Shown here: piece by piece, positions 3,783-14,703 of the stretch
Numbering within the stretch: position 1 is the first letter of the stretch
Layout: each line of letters begins with the position of its first letter
Assembly: GCA_934090595.1 (NCBI GenBank)
Contig: CAKOJO010000001.1
Location: forward strand, 1 to 55,665
DNA length: 55,665 nucleotides
Reading direction: 5' to 3'
DNA from: an uncultured Bacilli bacterium
Lineage (GTDB): Bacteria > Bacillota_I > Bacilli_A > RF39 > UBA660
Made by a program: the position numbers and the translations under genes
Notes under the pieces: model-generated
The model's input: the letters and a program-made list of their open reading frames with translations, nothing else
Databases searched by the model: none
What the model was told of the DNA's origin: nothing

Positions 3783-3933
3783 TGATGTTAGTAGATGTTA
3801 ATAAGTTAATGATTTATTAACATAATGAAATTAGTTTAAACTGTTTATAGATAAGGAAATTGATGACTTATTAACAATATTAACAGTAATAATATAAATA
3901 ATAAATATATTAAAAAGAAAGAAGGAATGAAAT
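3783..3933. promoter_or_regulatory. oriC right half: DnaA-box-like sites plus an AT-rich candidate unwinding element
   Basis: TGTTAATAA at 3796. TTATTAACA at 3814 and 3868, with ATATTAACA at 3877. These are followed by pure A/T sequence with TAA/TAT triplets (3886-3920) before the dnaN RBS. Confidence 0.6.
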
Positions 3934-5129: not shown

Positions 5130-5196
5130 TCTCTGTATGATAGGGTATTGATCAATATATTTTTATATATTAATTTTTGTGTGTGGGGGTGATATT

Positions 5197-5652
5197 ATGG
5201 ATTATGATATTAATAGAGATACAGTAATGATTATTCCAATAAATGATAAGAAATCTAGAGTTATTGAAACTAATAGTGATTATATAGTTGATGATAATGC
5301 TTATTCTATTATGGAACGTAGTTGTTTGTATTTTGGAAGTTCATATGAAGGAAGACTTATGAGTTCAAAAAGTATTTTGGGTAGTGTTTATAAGGCTCCA
5401 ATAGTAATTGAAGAAAGTAGAAGTATTATATTTTTTCCTGTAAAATCTTCTGTTGTGAAACAAAATATTTGGATTTCTTTGAATAATTTAGTTAGTTATA
5501 ATAAACATGATAAAAAAACTATTATAACTTTTAAAAGGGACAAACAAATTTTATTGGATATTCCTTATTTTTCTATTGATAGTCAGGTTCTTAGATCTAC
5601 TTTATTGGAATCTGTTATTCGTAGAAGAAAAAATGAAGAAAAAAACGATTAA
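5197..5652 (+). CDS. comK: ComK-family transcription factor
   Basis: ORF 5179..5652. Preferred start is ATG 5197 after a GGGGGTGA RBS. The core ERSCLYFGSSYEGR...KAPIVIEES..IIFFPVKS...WIS aligns by eye with B. subtilis ComK (DRSCRFFGSSYAGR...KPPIMVDPS..IFLFPTLS...WIS). Confidence 0.8.
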   Translation: MDYDINRDTVMIIPINDKKSRVIETNSDYIVDDNAYSIMERSCLYFGSSYEGRLMSSKSILGSVYKAPIVIEESRSIIFFPVKSSVVKQNIWISLNNLVSYNKHDKKTIITFKRDKQILLDIPYFSIDSQVLRSTLLESVIRRRKNEEKND

Positions 5653-11391: not shown

Positions 11392-11469
11392 ACACAAAAA
11401 ATAAACAAATGTTTGTTAATGTGTTATTTCTATAATTTTTACAAATTGTTAATAAGTGTTAATTTTTAA

Positions 11470-11485
11470 TGTTTCACGTGAAACT
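11470..11485. promoter_or_regulatory. parS-like site 1 (15/16 match)
   Basis: TGTTTCACGTGAAACT is one terminal mismatch from the symmetric parS 16-mer. TGTTAATAA lies 23 bp upstream. Confidence 0.75.
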
Positions 11486-11646
11486 ATGTATAGGTTTTGT
11501 ATTACAATAATAAAATTTTGTTAGTATCAATTATTTACAATGAATGTTAATTAATTTAAAATTTTAATTTTTTTGTATTTTTAATTTTAGTATTTAAAAT
11601 GTTATTATTTTAAAACATTAAAATTGTTAATAACTTATTTTTTTAA

Positions 11647-11662
11647 TGTTTCACGTGAAACA
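11647..11662. promoter_or_regulatory. parS site 2 (perfect)
   Basis: TGTTTCACGTGAAACA, inside the 24-bp palindrome 11643-11666. It abuts a TTGACT -35-like hexamer upstream of the SRP RNA. Confidence 0.85.
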
Positions 11663-11700
11663 TTAATTGACTATTTTTCTGTTTTATTATAATATATATT

Positions 11701-11772
11701 TGTGCAACGCATATGGTTGAATTAGGTCAGGATCGGAAGATAGCAGCCTTAAGATCCTCTATGCGTGTGCAC
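11701..11772 (+). ncRNA. ffs: Small (4.5S-type) signal recognition particle RNA
   Basis: Contains GGTCAGGATCGGAAGATAGCAGCC, the conserved SRP domain IV motif with a GGAA tetraloop. The 5' GTGCAACGCATA pairs with the 3' TATGCGTGTGCAC. T8 follows, and a TTGACT / TATAAT-like promoter lies upstream. It overlaps the spurious N-terminus of ORF 11713..12231. Confidence 0.85.
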
Positions 11773-11790
11773 TTTTTTTTGGAGGTTTTT

Positions 11791-12231
11791 ATGTTGTTAA
11801 ATGATGATAAATATTACTTTGATTTAGCTATAAAGGAAGCAAGAAAAGCATCAAAAACAAATAATGTTCCAGTTGGTTGCATTATTGTTTTTAAAAATAA
11901 AGTAATTGCTAAAGCATATAATAAAAAGAATAATAAAAATATCTCAATATATCATGCTGAAATTTTAGCTATTATTAAAGCTTGTAAGTATTTAAAAACA
12001 TTTATTTTAGAAGAATGTACTATGTATGTTACTTTGGAACCTTGTGAAATGTGTATGAATGCTATTGCTGAATCTCGTATTAGAAATATTAAATATTTGA
12101 TTTCTTCCAAGTATGAAAATAATTTAAAGAGTAACTACGATCGTATTAATTGCAGAAAATATGACGATAACGAATTTGCAAATAAATATAAAAATATATT
12201 GTCAGAATTTTTTAGTAATATAAGAAGTTAA
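11791..12231 (+). CDS. tadA: tRNA-specific adenosine deaminase
   Basis: Start ATG 11791 after GGAGG (MLLNDDKYYFDLAIKEA). Zinc deaminase motifs HAEILAI and TLEPCEMC. Adjacent to ffs and dnaX, as in Bacillus. Confidence 0.9.
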   Translation: MLLNDDKYYFDLAIKEARKASKTNNVPVGCIIVFKNKVIAKAYNKKNNKNISIYHAEILAIIKACKYLKTFILEECTMYVTLEPCEMCMNAIAESRIRNIKYLISSKYENNLKSNYDRINCRKYDDNEFANKYKNILSEFFSNIRS

Positions 12232-12234
12232 CAA

Positions 12235-12250
12235 TGTTTCACGTGAAACA
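12235..12250. promoter_or_regulatory. parS site 3 (perfect)
   Basis: TGTTTCACGTGAAACA at the centre of the perfect 32-bp palindrome 12227-12258. The palindrome overlaps the tadA stop codon and is followed by a T-rich run. Confidence 0.85.
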
Positions 12251-12298
12251 TTGTTAACTGTTTTTATTTAATTAAATTTAAGCAGTAGTATCTTTCTA

Positions 12299-12314
12299 TG
12301 TTTCACGTGAAACA
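12299..12314. promoter_or_regulatory. parS site 4 (perfect)
   Basis: TGTTTCACGTGAAACA at the centre of the perfect 36-bp palindrome 12289-12324. Confidence 0.85.
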
Positions 12315-12448
12315 TAGAAAGATATTAACATTTTTTTTGTTAATATTATGCTATTTATGCTTATATTGCAAAATATATTTGTATAATAATGTAATTATAA
12401 ATATAGTTAATAATTTTATTTTTATTACTTAATTTGTTATTGAGTTAA

Positions 12449-12464
12449 TGTTTCACGTGAAACA
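12449..12464. promoter_or_regulatory. parS site 5 (perfect)
   Basis: TGTTTCACGTGAAACA at the centre of the 40-bp palindrome 12437-12476. One T/G mispair would be a wobble pair in RNA. Confidence 0.85.
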
Positions 12465-12581
12465 TTGACTCAATAAATATTTTAATATCACAAAAATAAG
12501 TGTTTAATTGTTATAATTATTTCGTATTTTTATTTCTATATTCTGAAAAATACATTTTAATACAAAAAAATGTTTGTAAAT

Positions 12582-12597
12582 TATTTCCCGGGAAATA
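12582..12597. promoter_or_regulatory. Noc-binding-site-like palindrome 1
   Basis: TATTTCCCGGGAAATA contains the 14-bp NBS consensus ATTTCCCGGGAAAT perfectly. It extends to the 24-bp palindrome 12578-12601. Its centre is 61 bp from the centre of parS 6. Confidence 0.7.
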
Positions 12598-12642
12598 ATT
12601 TTGAATTATATATATTAAATTGTTAATAAATGTATTTTTCAA

Positions 12643-12658
12643 TGTTTCACGTGAAACA
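12643..12658. promoter_or_regulatory. parS site 6 (perfect)
   Basis: TGTTTCACGTGAAACA at the centre of the perfect 36-bp palindrome 12633-12668. TGTTAATAA lies 22 bp upstream. Confidence 0.85.
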
Positions 12659-12788
12659 TTGAAAAATATTGATACTTGTTTATGTTAATTTATTTATTTT
12701 AAATATACAATATTTTTAATGGATGATTTATTTATTCTTTATTTTTTTGGTTTAGTAATTGTTTTTGATTTTATTTGATCTAATCTTA

Positions 12789-12804
12789 TGTTTCACGTGA
12801 AACA
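12789..12804. promoter_or_regulatory. parS site 7 (perfect)
   Basis: TGTTTCACGTGAAACA; the palindrome extends only to 18 bp. Confidence 0.85.
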
Positions 12805-12908
12805 TTGTTATTTTTTTTATAAAAGTAATAATGTTTATGTTTAAATTTTATTTTTAATATATTATGTTCTTAAAAATGTGTTGTGAATACAAAAACTGGC
12901 TTGCAAAT

Positions 12909-12924
12909 TATTTCCCGGGAAATA
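12909..12924. promoter_or_regulatory. Noc-binding-site-like palindrome 2
   Basis: TATTTCCCGGGAAATA within the 24-bp palindrome 12905-12928. Its centre is 61 bp from the centre of parS 8. Confidence 0.7.
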
Positions 12925-12969
12925 ATTTTAAATTATGTATATTAAATTGTTGATAAGTATTTTTTTTAA

Positions 12970-12985
12970 TGTTTCACGTGAAACA
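12970..12985. promoter_or_regulatory. parS site 8 (perfect)
   Basis: TGTTTCACGTGAAACA at the centre of the 32-bp palindrome 12962-12993. TGTTGATAA lies 22 bp upstream. Confidence 0.85.
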
Positions 12986-13092
12986 TTAAAAAAGTTATTT
13001 TATACAATTGTCATATCATAGACTTTATTAATCTAATTTGGTACAATATTTATAGTATTTTTTTTGGGGGTGATATTATTGCTTATTTAGCT

Positions 13093-14703
13093 TTGTATAG
13101 AAAATATAGACCAACTTGTTTTGATGAGGTTGCTGGTCAAGATTCTATTGTAAAGATACTTAAAAATTCTATTGCTAATGATTGTGTTTCTCATGCTTAT
13201 TTGTTTGCTGGTCCAAGAGGAACTGGAAAAACGAGTTTGGCAAAAATTATTGCAAAAACTATTAATTGTTTTAATTTGAATGGATCTACATTTTGCAATG
13301 AATGTGATAGTTGTATTGCTTTTAATAACAAAAATAATCCTGATATTATTGAAATAGATGCTGCTTCGAATAATGGTGTTGAGGAAATTAGAAAAATTAG
13401 AGATAGTGTTAATTTAATGCCGAGTATTTCAAAGTATAAAGTTTATATTATTGATGAAGTGCATATGTTATCGAGTGGAGCTTTTAATGCATTGTTGAAA
13501 ACTCTTGAGGAACCACCAACTCACGTTATTTTTATATTGGCAACTACAGAATTTTATAAAATTCCAGAAACTATTATTTCTAGATGTCAATGTTTTAGTT
13601 TTGAACGTATTTCAAATAACGATATTGTAAATAAACTGAAGTATATTGTGGATTGTGAAAAAATAAATATTGATGATGAAGTTTTGAATTTGATTGCAAA
13701 ATATAGTGATGGTGGTTTAAGGGATTCGATTAGTATGTTGGATAAATTGATTTCTTATTCTGACAAAATTACTGTTGATGATTATTATACTTTAAAAGGT
13801 ATTGTTAATGAGGAATATTTAAAATCTTTAACAAATTATATTTTTAATGGTGATGTCTCTAGTATTTTGAATCTCTTAACTGAATTGGAAAATTCGGGTA
13901 AAGATGTTGTTATTTTATTAGATAGTTTTATGGAATATCTTAAGTCTTGTTTAATCTTACATAATAGTAGTGATTTCAATTCTATTTATAGTTTAATTAT
14001 TGAATTGAATGAGTTAGATATATTGCTGAAAAGAAGTAGTAATAAAAAAATTATTTTTGAGGTTGGAATTATTAAAATTGTTAATAAATTATTTAATAAT
14101 AAAACAAATGTTTGTGATTTTCAAGACATTAATAATTTGTCTACTTTAGAAAAAGAAGTTGTTTCTAGTAATAAGAATGATGATGTTCCTAAAAATGTAG
14201 TTGAAACTTATAAAGTGTGTTATAATAAAGATATCAGGATTAATAATGCTTTTGCTTTAGCTGATAAAAGTCTTTTGAATGATTTGAAAATTAAATGGGT
14301 TTTATTTTCTGAAGTTGTTTCTAATCCTGAAGATTCTTTGTTTATTTCTTATTTACTTGATAGTACTTTACGAGTTGCTGGTAAACATGAATTGATTTTA
14401 TCAGTTAAATATGATTCTATTCTTAAGAATGTTGATAACAATATTTCTGATATTGAATCAGTATTTAATACTATTATGAACACTAACTATAAACTTACAT
14501 TTATTAATGATTCTGATTGGGATAAATTAAAAAATGAATACATAAAAAATATTCAAAATGGGAGTGCTTATAGTTATATTAATGAGGAAAATGTTAATAA
14601 TGATATTAATATTTCTTCGAGTGAGAATGTTTCTTTTAATAATAATGATAGTGATGTTTTGGCTACTTCATTATTTGGCGAAGATATTGTTGAATTGAAA
14701 TAG
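13093..14703 (+). CDS. dnaX: DNA polymerase III subunit tau (clamp loader)
   Basis: Walker A GPRGTGKTS, a zinc-module cysteines region (CNECDSC), and SRC motif ISRCQ. The ORF track starts at TTG 13093. In-frame ATT at 13078 would give MAYLALYRKYRP (canonical N-terminus) at good spacing from the GGGGGTGA RBS, so the true start may be 13078. Confidence 0.92.
   Translation: MYRKYRPTCFDEVAGQDSIVKILKNSIANDCVSHAYLFAGPRGTGKTSLAKIIAKTINCFNLNGSTFCNECDSCIAFNNKNNPDIIEIDAASNNGVEEIRKIRDSVNLMPSISKYKVYIIDEVHMLSSGAFNALLKTLEEPPTHVIFILATTEFYKIPETIISRCQCFSFERISNNDIVNKLKYIVDCEKINIDDEVLNLIAKYSDGGLRDSISMLDKLISYSDKITVDDYYTLKGIVNEEYLKSLTNYIFNGDVSSILNLLTELENSGKDVVILLDSFMEYLKSCLILHNSSDFNSIYSLIIELNELDILLKRSSNKKIIFEVGIIKIVNKLFNNKTNVCDFQDINNLSTLEKEVVSSNKNDDVPKNVVETYKVCYNKDIRINNAFALADKSLLNDLKIKWVLFSEVVSNPEDSLFISYLLDSTLRVAGKHELILSVKYDSILKNVDNNISDIESVFNTIMNTNYKLTFINDSDWDKLKNEYIKNIQNGSAYSYINEENVNNDINISSSENVSFNNNDSDVLATSLFGEDIVELK

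Follow-up and report, generated by a model that had tools for sequence, protein, structure and literature searches.

Why binding sites for two different members of the ParB family should stand side by side, twice, close to a replication origin is the question raised by the 55,665-nucleotide stretch of DNA from an uncultured gut bacterium of the Bacilli that is analysed here (the window). An initial annotation had described two modules in this stretch, each with a Noc-binding site (NBS) and a parS at a fixed distance, and had suggested from them either that two CTP-dependent clamps load in coordination or in competition, or that Noc tethers the centromere to the membrane. Our reading, to which we give a probability of roughly 0.6 and which is drawn from comparison of sequences, is that both modules belong to a centromere of composite make-up near the origin, which would load ParB as well as Noc.

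The modules lie between gyrA and dnaX (Table 1), where eight parS occur within 1.5 kb (11470-12985), seven of them identical to the consensus TGTTNCACGTGAAACA and one with a single mismatch, versus 0.01 expected by chance. The cluster follows dnaA at a distance of 7.7-9.2 kb from the gene's end, and dnaA itself has DnaA-box clusters on both sides. It is noted that the initial annotation had described two parS, and that both belong to this cluster of eight. Many of the parS are embedded in perfect palindromes of 32-36 bp with arms that are not conserved, and seven of the parS hairpins are terminator-like, versus 0.1 expected. The Rfam search of the window gave only an SRP RNA and a T-box (21917-22105); no RNA element overlaps either module, which rules out the modules being an RNA element.

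Table 1. Positions of the features discussed, numbered from the first letter of the window.
Feature	Position	Strand	Remarks
oriC DnaA-box cluster 5' of dnaA	2231..2329		four exact TGTTAATAA; sets the local DnaA-box variant
dnaA	2412..3782	+	
DnaA-box cluster between dnaA and dnaN	3796..3876		three exact 9-mers
DnaA-box 9-mer (11447-11455), 14 nt, parS-1 (11470-11485)	11447..11485		1 mismatch: TGTTTCACGTGAAACT
DnaA-box 9-mer (11625-11633), 13 nt, parS-2 (11647-11662)	11625..11662		parS-2 perfect
small SRP RNA gene	11691..11788	+	within the centromere region; Rfam match
tadA, tRNA adenosine deaminase, 146 aa	11791..12231	+	parS on both flanks
parS-3 (12235-12250) in 34-bp perfect palindrome	12226..12259		terminator-like + strand hairpin directly 3' of the tadA stop codon
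parS-4 (12299-12314) in 36-bp perfect palindrome	12289..12324		terminator-like
parS-5	12449..12464		perfect; in near-palindrome of ~40 bp; terminator-like
module copy 1	12561..12668	+	NBS 12582-12597, DnaA box, parS-6
DnaA box of copy 1	12621-12629		TGTTAATAA
parS-6	12643-12658		within 36-bp palindrome 12633-12668
parS-7	12789..12804		perfect; between the two modules
module copy 2	12888..12995	+	NBS 12909-12924, DnaA-box variant, parS-8
DnaA-box variant of copy 2	12948-12956		TGTTGATAA
parS-8	12970-12985		within 32-bp palindrome
candidate dnaX promoter, TAGACT-17-TGgTACAAT	13019..13047	+	34 bp 3' of parS-8; consensus match only
dnaX	13093..14703	+	right-hand limit of the centromere region

The description of the modules themselves holds. 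The NBS 16-mer, TATTTCCCGGGAAATA, is present without mismatch in both of them and is unique to them in the window: with up to 2 mismatches allowed, the 14-mer NBS core gives those two matches only in the 55.7 kb, and CCCGGG, which according to the initial annotation might be a common repeat, occurs only twice, both times within the NBS. Estimated from base composition, about 1e-5 occurrences of the exact 16-bp NBS are expected by chance. Both NBS lie, as had been seen, inside one identical 24-bp palindrome, AAATTATTTCCCGGGAAATAATTT (12578-12601 and 12905-12928), the distance from the NBS centre to the parS centre is 61 bp in both modules, and the DnaA-box-like 9-mer noted between the two sites is the box repeated at oriC in copy 1 and a variant of it in copy 2. 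The two modules of 108 nt align without gaps at +327 with exactly 15 mismatches, where about 15 had been counted. Immediately outside the 108 nt the identity at +327 is at the background level, which rules out that a 327-bp unit was simply duplicated in tandem; the modules stand 327 bp apart with unrelated sequence between them and are not head-to-tail tandem units. A shorter sub-module, AAATTGTTAATAA-N13-parS, is present four times.

It had been proposed to look for a noc paralog beside soj-spo0J, and one is found in the same species, in the canonical rsmG-noc-soj-spo0J position and with NBS-type residues. Four longer contigs of the species, with DnaA 100% identical, show the gene order rsmG, Noc-like gene, parA, parB, and the same rsmG/ParB-like/parA/parB order is present in all five related species that we sampled. 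The window's own contig ends at jag. The Noc-like protein, of 427-429 aa in this species and 351-429 aa when the five related species are included, has TIGR04285 nucleoid_noc as its best NCBIfam match (297.5 bits) and the Noc structures 7NG0/7NFU/7OL9 as its best PDB matches (221 bits, versus 176 bits for Spo0J). At the specificity positions 173/179/184/201 it has Q/K/N/R, with Q-K-N conserved in 113 of 118 full-length homologs and R201 in all 118. The set of Q173, K179 and R201 is enough for NBS specificity, and a single lysine at either 179 or 184 is enough (PMC7383237); position 184, nearly always K in Noc, is N in the protein here. Moreover, the GERR box (GERRxRA) of the predicted CTP-binding ParB/Srx N-terminal domain is present in 117 of the 118 homologs, and the domain aligns with the Noc structures. 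ParA and ParB of the same species are of 259 aa and 298 aa, respectively, the ParB sequence examined being its first 106 aa. In relatives the N-terminus of ParB is canonical, and the full-length ParB sequences of L010 and L012 carry R173 and G201, the residues of the parS type.

By contrast, the suggested membrane tethering of the centromere by Noc does not stand in its known form. The start residue of the Noc-like protein aligns with residue 27 of B. subtilis Noc, and in the 118 full-length homologs examined about 23 N-terminal residues are missing and the N-terminal amphipathic membrane-targeting helix is absent; because this helix is missing, membrane tethering has no known basis here. In B. 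subtilis the helix is required for nucleoid occlusion (PMC8429893). Nearly all of the 118 homologs start with MNL[ED][KQ]E (MNLEKE-type), and a ribosome-binding site precedes the ATG. For five species out of six, any start codon in the upstream frame is followed by a stop codon; the frame of L012 may allow a short extension to a TTG. The linker of the protein is disordered and of 150-330 aa, with one conserved island, [IV]F[DNSE]xLR.

The pairing of NBS with parS recurs. In all five of the related species, which were sampled through DnaA (74-92% identity), there are 5-11 parS between gyrA and dnaX, with 1-3 perfect NBS between gyrA and dnaX or in dnaX. In two of the five, L010 and L012, NBS lie 0.6-1.7 kb from the parS array; the peptide encoded at the dnaX-internal NBS of L010 falls in a region that does not align with the DnaX of the window. 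The genome scan for recurrence that the initial annotation had called for, carried out here on species-representative genomes with NBS-parS gaps of 27-57 nt covered, finds NBS and parS paired 27-57 bp apart in at least 120 stretches; among the matches listed, the GC content is <32% in 116 of 120, and 25 of 120 have three or more strictly alternating NBS/parS units. The tandem arrays in relatives have up to 13 units, the unit being of 82-83 bp in one array (13 copies) and of 126 bp in another (11 copies), and those of L085, L039, L015 and L038 are made of head-to-tail units of 82-127 bp, each with a ParB-type inverted repeat. The NBS consensus in the relatives extends to 22-24 bp, AAAWTATTTCCCGGGAAATAWTTT, and the 16-bp site is exact in all of them. 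In our literature search no published description of interleaved NBS and parS at the origin was found, in agreement with the earlier remark that no such arrangement was known as described.

To see where NBS lie irrespective of parS, a parS-blind metagenome sample was used, which was collected with an exact 22-mer NBS probe, comprises redundant contigs and is blind to degenerate dispersed NBS. Among the matches listed, the origin region accounts for about 90% of the sampled NBS. Synteny with the origin region of the window is seen in 96 of 120 stretches, a further 8 consist of short parS arrays, and when only low-GC stretches of 3 kb or more are considered, 84 of 91 come from the origin region. 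Another 9% of the NBS, among the matches listed, are in stretches without origin markers, and in the two such stretches that were inspected the NBS flank polA. Around oriC in this species, about 65 kb contain as NBS the two array sites only. At the level of the clade and for the exact 22-mer, few NBS of this lineage thus lie outside the origin region, and they are not scattered over the chromosome. Noc is therefore best read here as a factor bound at the origin or the centromere, and seems not to be a nucleoid-occlusion factor that acts chromosome-wide.

The co-clustering of NBS and parS is conserved across the related species and the exact spacing is not. The initial annotation had considered the 61 bp as fixed and hard-wired, which the comparison of strains and species rules out. 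Among strains of the species the spacing is 61 or 62 bp (62 in copy 1 of other strains), versus 22-100 bp in other species; the individual offsets in related species are 66/67, 53/54, 45, ~100, 607 and 1744 bp, and the distances between neighbouring NBS and parS across the clade range from 18 to >100 bp. This variable spacing argues against a rigid Noc-ParB geometry. One strain, L002, has only one module, versus two in the other strains, and is without parS-7; its single module is a recombinant, with copy-1 sequence on the left and copy-2 sequence on the right. Between strains as well as between species, the NBS and the parS stay perfect while the spacers diverge. The duplication of 108 nt would then be an outcome of unequal recombination between the repeated sites, with the module copy number and the exact 61-bp spacing probably free of constraint.

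A finer regularity in the distances was also considered. In the genome set, which is biased and phylogenetically non-independent, the NBS-parS distances have peaks at about 25, 36-37, 47-48, 57-58 and 68 bp, with a period of 10.5-10.75 bp, a half-turn phase and Rayleigh p ~1e-13. The 61/62 bp of the window falls in a trough between these peaks. The array periods are near whole helical turns (R=0.56, n=33), many of the arrays being homologous to each other. In the unbiased metagenome set, no helical phasing was found (n=80, R=0.05), and the phasing of the NBS-parS distances, being not replicated there, is kept as a lead only, as are the array periods.

The polymorphic module number, the spacing that differs by 1 bp among strains and by much more from one species to the next, the NBS of L010 and L012 away from the parS array and the phasing that is not replicated are all what would be seen if the NBS had merely hitch-hiked, that is, if they were only origin-enriched as in other Firmicutes, if recombination among parS had copied a segment that carries an NBS, and if Noc and ParB acted independently, with an adjacency of no function. 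This explanation is nevertheless unlikely: the pairing occurs in the at least 120 species-representative stretches with many differing unit architectures, both types of site remain perfect beside the diverging spacers, and 76 of the 214 NBS of the parS-blind metagenome sample (36%, among the matches listed) lie within 150 bp of a parS, whereas a parS array makes up only about 0.1% of a genome of 1.3-1.5 Mb.

The DnaA boxes could give the locus another meaning. The 9-mer TGTTAATAA, which is repeated 8 times around dnaA (2231-2329, 2613, 3796-3876), occurs 23 times in the window versus 4.5 expected, and three times in the parS/NBS array, where one variant, TGTTGATAA, is also present. Four of the eight parS in the window have a 9-mer of the module type 13-14 nt upstream of them, and so, at the same offset, have three parS in L006. 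Over 201 loci, the density of DnaA-box 9-mers in the 60 bp around parS/NBS is 2.7- to 5-fold that elsewhere, these counts not being independent because tandem copies were counted. In B. subtilis, DnaA-box clusters exist outside oriC. In S. aureus, Noc restrains DnaA-dependent initiation (PMC5540599). Modelled on these two cases, with which the locus shares oriC-type boxes near oriC beside the sites of an initiation-linked protein, the boxes next to parS and NBS would make a DnaA-binding cluster, and Noc and/or ParB-Soj would modulate the availability or activity of DnaA. We consider such a replication control improbable, since the boxes here, as opposed to the B. subtilis clusters, are few (3-4 in the 1.5 kb), vary among strains (TGTTAATAA, TGTTAGTAA, TGTTGATAA) and are absent from many arrays, including the big tandem ones of L085, L039, L015 and L038.

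KorB is a ParB-family clamp that silences promoters. In a similar way, Noc and/or ParB bound upstream of dnaX and at NBS beside replication genes might repress or insulate the dnaX-ybaB-recR operon, with the parS hairpins being terminators. Consistent with this, parS-8 lies just upstream of the candidate dnaX promoter, about 70 bp separate an NBS of L012 from the start codon of dnaX downstream of it, other NBS are found within dnaX, on the flanks of polA and where recF and gyrB meet, and the terminator-like parS hairpins are in the excess given above. However, an operator has no need of as many units as the arrays contain, which is up to 13, NBS are also found within coding sequences and at gene ends, and the promoter scan of the region gave 25 promoter-like matches versus 19.8 in the shuffled background, with no excess, all of which makes transcriptional control or insulation very unlikely as the explanation.

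CCCGGG is well known as a type II restriction site, and a non-Noc factor, either a restriction-modification enzyme or an unrelated regulator, might thus recognise the palindrome. That is hardly credible, as the conservation spans 22-24 bp, far past a 6-bp restriction site, the 16-bp core is the same as the experimentally defined NBS (PMC7383237), and the same species encodes a Noc ortholog with matching specificity residues.

Returning to the composite centromere, we propose the following mechanism. The 1.5 kb between gyrA and dnaX would hold eight ParB loading sites, with two Noc loading sites and several DnaA-box 9-mers interleaved. ParB-CTP clamps would load at the parS, and the Noc variant of the lineage, encoded by the gene between rsmG and soj, would load at the NBS 61-62 bp away. 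With ParB and Noc loading at adjacent sites, both clamps would therefore be released onto the same few kilobases, and Noc would be a resident of the partition complex, moving with the origin region that is segregated by ParABS. Coordinated or competitive loading of the two CTP-dependent clamps, as suggested in the initial annotation, is plausible on such a layout. We infer the binding of Noc and ParB, their co-occupancy and their cellular function from the sites and the residues. As for the role of Noc, it may be a division-timing mark or an origin anchor; the known effector arm of Noc is missing, and the function proposed here is a guess.

If the reading is extended to the clade, we tentatively suggest, as something that may well prove otherwise, that in a large uncultured lineage of low-GC, small-genome gut Bacilli Noc would be a second CTP-dependent clamp at the centromere instead of a chromosome-wide occlusion factor, with NBS built into the parS array, in some cases as alternating satellite-like repeats, with the helix lost, and with the linker motif coupling the ParB-bound origin to a partner (the membrane, the division machinery or the pole). 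If so, the arrays would be the first loading zones of the ParB family with a natural dual specificity and may record an origin of NBS from parS copies in place.

The arrangement is a variation on the known Noc-NBS and ParABS systems. With the Noc-NBS system of B. subtilis and S. aureus it shares the 16-bp site, the gene position between rsmG and soj-spo0J, the order of a ParB/Srx N-terminal domain with GERR box, a helix-turn-helix and a Noc-type C-terminal domain, and the specificity residues Q173, K179 and R201. The variant here differs in being without the N-terminal membrane helix, in N184 for K, in the disordered linker of 150-330 aa and in the site consensus of 22-24 bp. Its sites, moreover, are concentrated in the origin region and interleaved with parS, whereas the NBS of B. 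subtilis are dispersed all around its chromosome (PMC8429893) and the Noc sites of S. aureus are at 41 loci across the origin-proximal half (PMC5540599). In the B. subtilis type of system, Noc keeps the division ring from assembling over the DNA to which it is bound.

As in chromosomal ParABS centromeres, consensus parS lie a few kilobases from oriC, parA and parB are nearby, and ParB (of the relatives) has R173/G201. By contrast with them, the parS here are unusually dense (8 in 1.5 kb; up to 11-13 in the tandem arrays of relatives), the sites of a second paralog are interleaved, and many of the parS lie in perfect palindromes of 32-36 bp with unconserved arms. The sopC centromere of the F plasmid consists of 12 tandem 43-bp units with one SopB site each, which the relatives' head-to-tail units of 82-127 bp with their ParB-type inverted repeats resemble; these arrays, however, are chromosomal and have two specificities, NBS and parS, per unit, and the two units of the window are dispersed at 327 bp, not tandem. 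RacA-ram serves origin anchoring in sporulating B. subtilis. A membrane origin anchor, RicO, is reported for S. aureus (bioRxiv 10.64898/2026.03.06.710092). Both have a dedicated DNA-binding protein with sites concentrated near the origin, as the NBS are here, but the families are unrelated and the likeness would be one of function only.

It is well known that Noc and ParB are paralogs that have diverged to different sites and jobs, division control versus segregation. The presence of both types of site in one locus across many species, the loss of the helix that defines how Noc is known to work, and NBS kept almost entirely to the origin region would fit a different role for Noc. If Noc loads there, the locus would be a natural system with two CTP-gated sliding clamps on one loading zone, in which it could be asked whether the clamps pass, block or co-condense, what Noc does without N-terminal membrane binding, and how, once a gene has been duplicated, the ParB family gains a new specificity together with the sites for it. 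Note also that Noc-NBS and ParB-parS pairs serve as orthogonal DNA labels (PMC11109969), and that the alternating arrays are ready substrates in vitro.

We conclude that the duplicated module forms part of a composite centromere, in which perfect sites of two ParB-family specificities, the Noc-binding site (NBS) and the ParB loading site parS, are interleaved beside oriC. The sequence statements of the initial annotation all hold. A search of the window for the NBS core with up to 2 mismatches allowed yields the two sites reported there, both TATTTCCCGGGAAATA, and no others; they also contain the only CCCGGG of the window, so that the motif is not a common repeat here, and both are enclosed by the identical 24-bp palindrome. 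The claimed distance of 61 bp from the NBS centre to the centre of a perfect parS holds in both copies, as does the gapless alignment of the modules, with 15 differences over 108 nt and the similarity ending abruptly at the module borders. The 9-mer between NBS and parS, which had been called DnaA-box-like, is identical to the oriC DnaA box in copy 1; that of copy 2 differs from it by one base. It was missed at that stage that both module parS belong to a cluster of 8 sites, 7 of them perfect (0.01 expected), which spans both sides of the SRP RNA gene and tadA and in which a shorter unit, composed of the DnaA box, 13-14 nt and parS, is present in 4 copies. It is also noted that both modules and a related species (L006) share a conserved block, AAAAATGTNTTNNNAATACAAAAA, about 12 nt upstream of the NBS, with the copy-2 version containing TGTGAATAC, which gives 8/9 matches to the general DnaA-box consensus.

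Across the strains and five related species, the co-location of NBS and parS is kept while the geometry is not, and the expectation of a conserved 61-bp spacing has to be given up. In three other strains of the species copy 1 has a spacing of 62 bp, against 61 bp for copy 2, and a further strain (L002) has a single module plus 6 parS. As the left part of this single module has the copy-1 sequence and the right part the copy-2 sequence, it arose by recombination of one copy with the other, and module copy number changes in this way. The five related species were picked through DnaA (92-74% identity), blind to NBS, and all five have 5-11 parS in the gyrA-dnaX interval, 1-3 perfect NBS nearby, and NBS-to-parS offsets of 66/67 bp; 53/54 and 45 bp; about 100 bp; 607 bp; and 1744 bp, the NBS in the last one sitting within the dnaX coding sequence. 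Two of the relatives (L010 and L012) carry parS-only tandem arrays, with the NBS 0.6-1.7 kb off.

The question whether the pairing recurs was answered by a scan of one genome per species for an NBS core separated from a parS core by 27-57 nt, which returned at least 120 stretches. Among the 120 listed, 116 have a G+C below 32%, the low-GC ones being labelled as MAGs of uncultured gut Bacilli, Erysipelotrichaceae, Mycoplasma or Tenericutes; circular chromosomes number 2 (1.31 and 1.52 Mb), and NBS and parS alternate strictly for at least 3 units in 25. The NBS consensus over all paired sites listed lengthens to AAAWTATTTCCCGGGAAATAWTTT. Over a broad lineage the two site types stay clustered, with diverging spacers. 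Note also that the satellite-like NBS/parS arrays of the relatives have units of 82-84 or 126-127 bp in up to 13 copies, and that the periods of the arrays, which are mutually non-independent, are near whole helical turns (31, 62, 83-84, 105, 126-127, 147 and 199-200 bp).

Positions of features in the window and, where an L-number is given, in other loci
Feature	Position	Description
jag, yidC, rnpA	left end of window	minus strand; origin-region gene order
dnaA, dnaN, comK, recF, gyrB, gyrA	next after rnpA	gene order
small SRP RNA, tadA	after gyrA, before dnaX	gene order
dnaX, ybaB, recR, holB, yaaT, pth, mfd, spoVT	after tadA	gene order
metS	after spoVT	T-box leader in front
oriC boxes	2231-2329, 3796-3876	
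comK homolog	5179-5652 (+)	between dnaN and recF
spoVT	21363-21893	
parS cluster	11470-12985	8 sites
NBS	12582, 12909	modules 1 and 2
Module parS	12643, 12970	modules 1 and 2
Block upstream of NBS	12540-12580, 12866-12905	modules 1 and 2
Perfect palindromes around parS	12226-12259, 12289-12324, 12633-12668, 12963-12994	32-36 bp
parS hairpins 3' of tadA	12226-12259, 12286-12327, 12437-12476	+ strand
Tandem array L085	4512-5520	13 units of 82-83 bp, alternating NBS/parS
Tandem array L039	2429-3700	11 units of 126 bp, alternating NBS/parS
Tandem array L015	2263-2950	6 units of 126 bp, alternating NBS/parS
Tandem array L038	1900-2210	84-bp units, alternating NBS/parS
parS-only array L010	19333-19600	5 sites, 63-bp spacing
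parS-only array L012	18886-19366	11 sites, 36-bp spacing
dnaX-internal NBS L010	21329-21344	perfect site
polA-flanking NBS L138	7782	outside origin-syntenic block
NBS at polA and the end of a DNA polymerase III alpha gene, L204	1946, 4885	outside origin-syntenic block
Noc variant gene L003	1203-2486 (-)	

The window is nearly the entire 55.8-kb human-gut metagenome contig, with a G+C of 26.7%, and its gene order is that of the origin region of a Bacillus-like Firmicute. The comK homolog has the same placement in almost all related origin loci and is a convenient synteny marker for the lineage. We take the 9-mer TGTTAATAA as the DnaA-box variant of the organism because it is repeated around dnaA, with 4 copies just upstream of the gene and 3 between dnaA and dnaN, and is overrepresented in the window (23 observed versus 4.5 expected). 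The oriC boxes have this sequence (reverse complement TTATTAACA), 2 bases off the classical TTATCCACA, which adjoins the array in at least one relative (L038). These boxes speak for a link between the array and the control of replication initiation, standing as they do at a fixed offset from 4 parS in the window and from 3 in L006, with a 2.7- to 5-fold enrichment around the sites over 201 loci; however, they differ among strains and are absent from many arrays.

It is also possible that the sites of the region act in transcriptional control or insulation of dnaX, as parS-8 is 34 bp from a candidate dnaX promoter, but this would leave the arrays of 11-13 units unexplained. Another feature of the parS sites is that perfect palindromes surround many of them in the window and in other loci (L006-L252), with the arms varying from site to site. 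Clade-wide, complementarity extends by 5 or more further pairs on either side at 116 of 463 distinct parS, versus about 0.4% of random positions, and at the copy-1 parS the arms of different strains show a compensatory change (tcAatg...catTga versus tcTatg...catAga). Selection for hairpins or cruciforms, or template-switch 'correction' of quasi-palindromes, could possibly underlie the arms. Moreover, the three consecutive parS hairpins 3' of tadA have T-rich tails and an intrinsic-terminator-like score, with 7 such sites found in the region versus 0.1 expected. Judging from sequence, the parS sites may have a second role as terminators, keeping read-through transcription out of the centromere.

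The location of NBS without the parS requirement comes from a scan of metagenome contigs, a redundant set, with the exact 22-mer, which gave at least 120 stretches, with 214 NBS sites among the matches listed. A parS lies within 150 bp of 76 of these 214 sites and within 500 bp of 93, and with the former 36% beside parS it is hard to reconcile the pairing with neutral hitch-hiking of NBS next to parS. By tblastn with the window proteins, 96 of the 120 stretches listed show origin-region synteny (mnmG to tatD), 8 more are short parS arrays and 16 are marker-less (3 high-GC, 6 shorter than 3 kb); among the listed matches from these redundant contigs, 84 of the 91 low-GC stretches that reach 3 kb or more are origin-region ones. 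About 97 of the 214 listed sites lie between gyrA and dnaX and 20 inside dnaX, with smaller recurrent groups at yaaT/pth, trmE/jag, recF/gyrB and mnmG/trmE. In this metagenome 22-mer sample the NBS of the lineage are for the most part restricted to the origin region, very unlike those of B. subtilis, which are described as dispersed over the chromosome (PMC8429893), and the 41 loci of S. aureus, which extend across the origin-proximal half (PMC5540599). The dnaX-internal NBS with AAAT/ATTT flanks encodes K/E-I-I-S-R-E-I-I; the dnaX of the window contains none. Two marker-less stretches have polA flanked by NBS, one of them sharing a 71-kb contig with an origin stretch, and in L204 NBS also flank the end of the DNA polymerase III alpha gene. 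With the polA sites added to those at dnaX, recF/gyrB and holB/yaaT, NBS seem to be found alongside replication genes.

As the window contig stops at jag, the paralog was sought in other assemblies via a look-up of the DnaA protein. The same species is represented by four longer contigs (DnaA 100% identical), which extend past jag through trmE, mnmG and rsmG, and a Noc-like paralog, which the initial annotation proposed to look for, is there: a 427-429-aa ParB-like gene occupies the canonical noc position after rsmG, followed by parA (259 aa) and parB (298 aa). Its top NCBIfam match is TIGR04285 (nucleoid occlusion), with 297.5 bits at a cut-off of 315, the match being broken in two by an inserted linker, and among solved structures it matches Noc with 221 bits versus Spo0J with 176 bits. 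Jalal et al. showed that four positions set the specificity for NBS versus parS, with Q173, R201 and one lysine (179 or 184) sufficient for NBS binding (PMC7383237). The paralog has Q173, K179, N184 and R201, and ParB of two related species has R, M, S and G, the parS type; both cognate proteins are encoded nearby with matching specificity residues. Since a Noc-like gene with such residues is present in the same species, the assignment of the palindrome to the Noc paralog is well founded, and with conservation over 22-24 bp and a paralog that matches, binding by some other factor is unlikely.

In the composite centromere, ParB-CTP and Noc-CTP clamps would load side by side and cover the same few kilobases, and Noc would therefore ride on the ParABS-segregated origin, its role probably being that of an origin-bound mark or anchor rather than a chromosome-wide occlusion factor. 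A full-text search of the literature on Noc, NBS and parS gave no description of interleaved or origin-restricted NBS or of the Noc variant; the components are of known kinds, while both their arrangement and the Noc variant seem to be new. Specialists would be surprised by the pattern, which is robust and broad, and it opens questions on CTP clamps that share one locus, and on how Noc evolved, to direct testing.

The Noc variant begins at the residue aligned to residue 27 of B. subtilis Noc. In 5 of 6 species the upstream frame is closed, with a stop codon after any start codon that it contains, the exception being L012, where a short in-frame TTG extension is possible. A ribosome-binding site stands ahead of the ATG. 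With this start and the upstream frame mostly closed, the variant lacks both the membrane-targeting sequence of 10 residues and the helix after it, which B. subtilis Noc requires for nucleoid occlusion (PMC8429893). Nearly all of the 118 full-length homologs (315-514 aa) share the same N-terminal start, and the Q-K-N residues are present in 113, R201 in all 118 and the GERR box in 117. The DNA-binding domain is separated from the C-terminal domain by a hypervariable, Q/P/E/T/N-rich linker of 150-330 aa, which AlphaFold2 predicts to be disordered apart from one short helix at residues 285-288. This helix is the sole conserved island of the linker, [IV]F[DNSE]xLR, with exactly one copy, at varying position, in 110 of the 118 homologs. 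The island is the obvious candidate interface of the variant, perhaps a relocated membrane- or partner-binding motif. Among the homologs (P0121-P0240), the island reads NIFDMLR in the species of the window.
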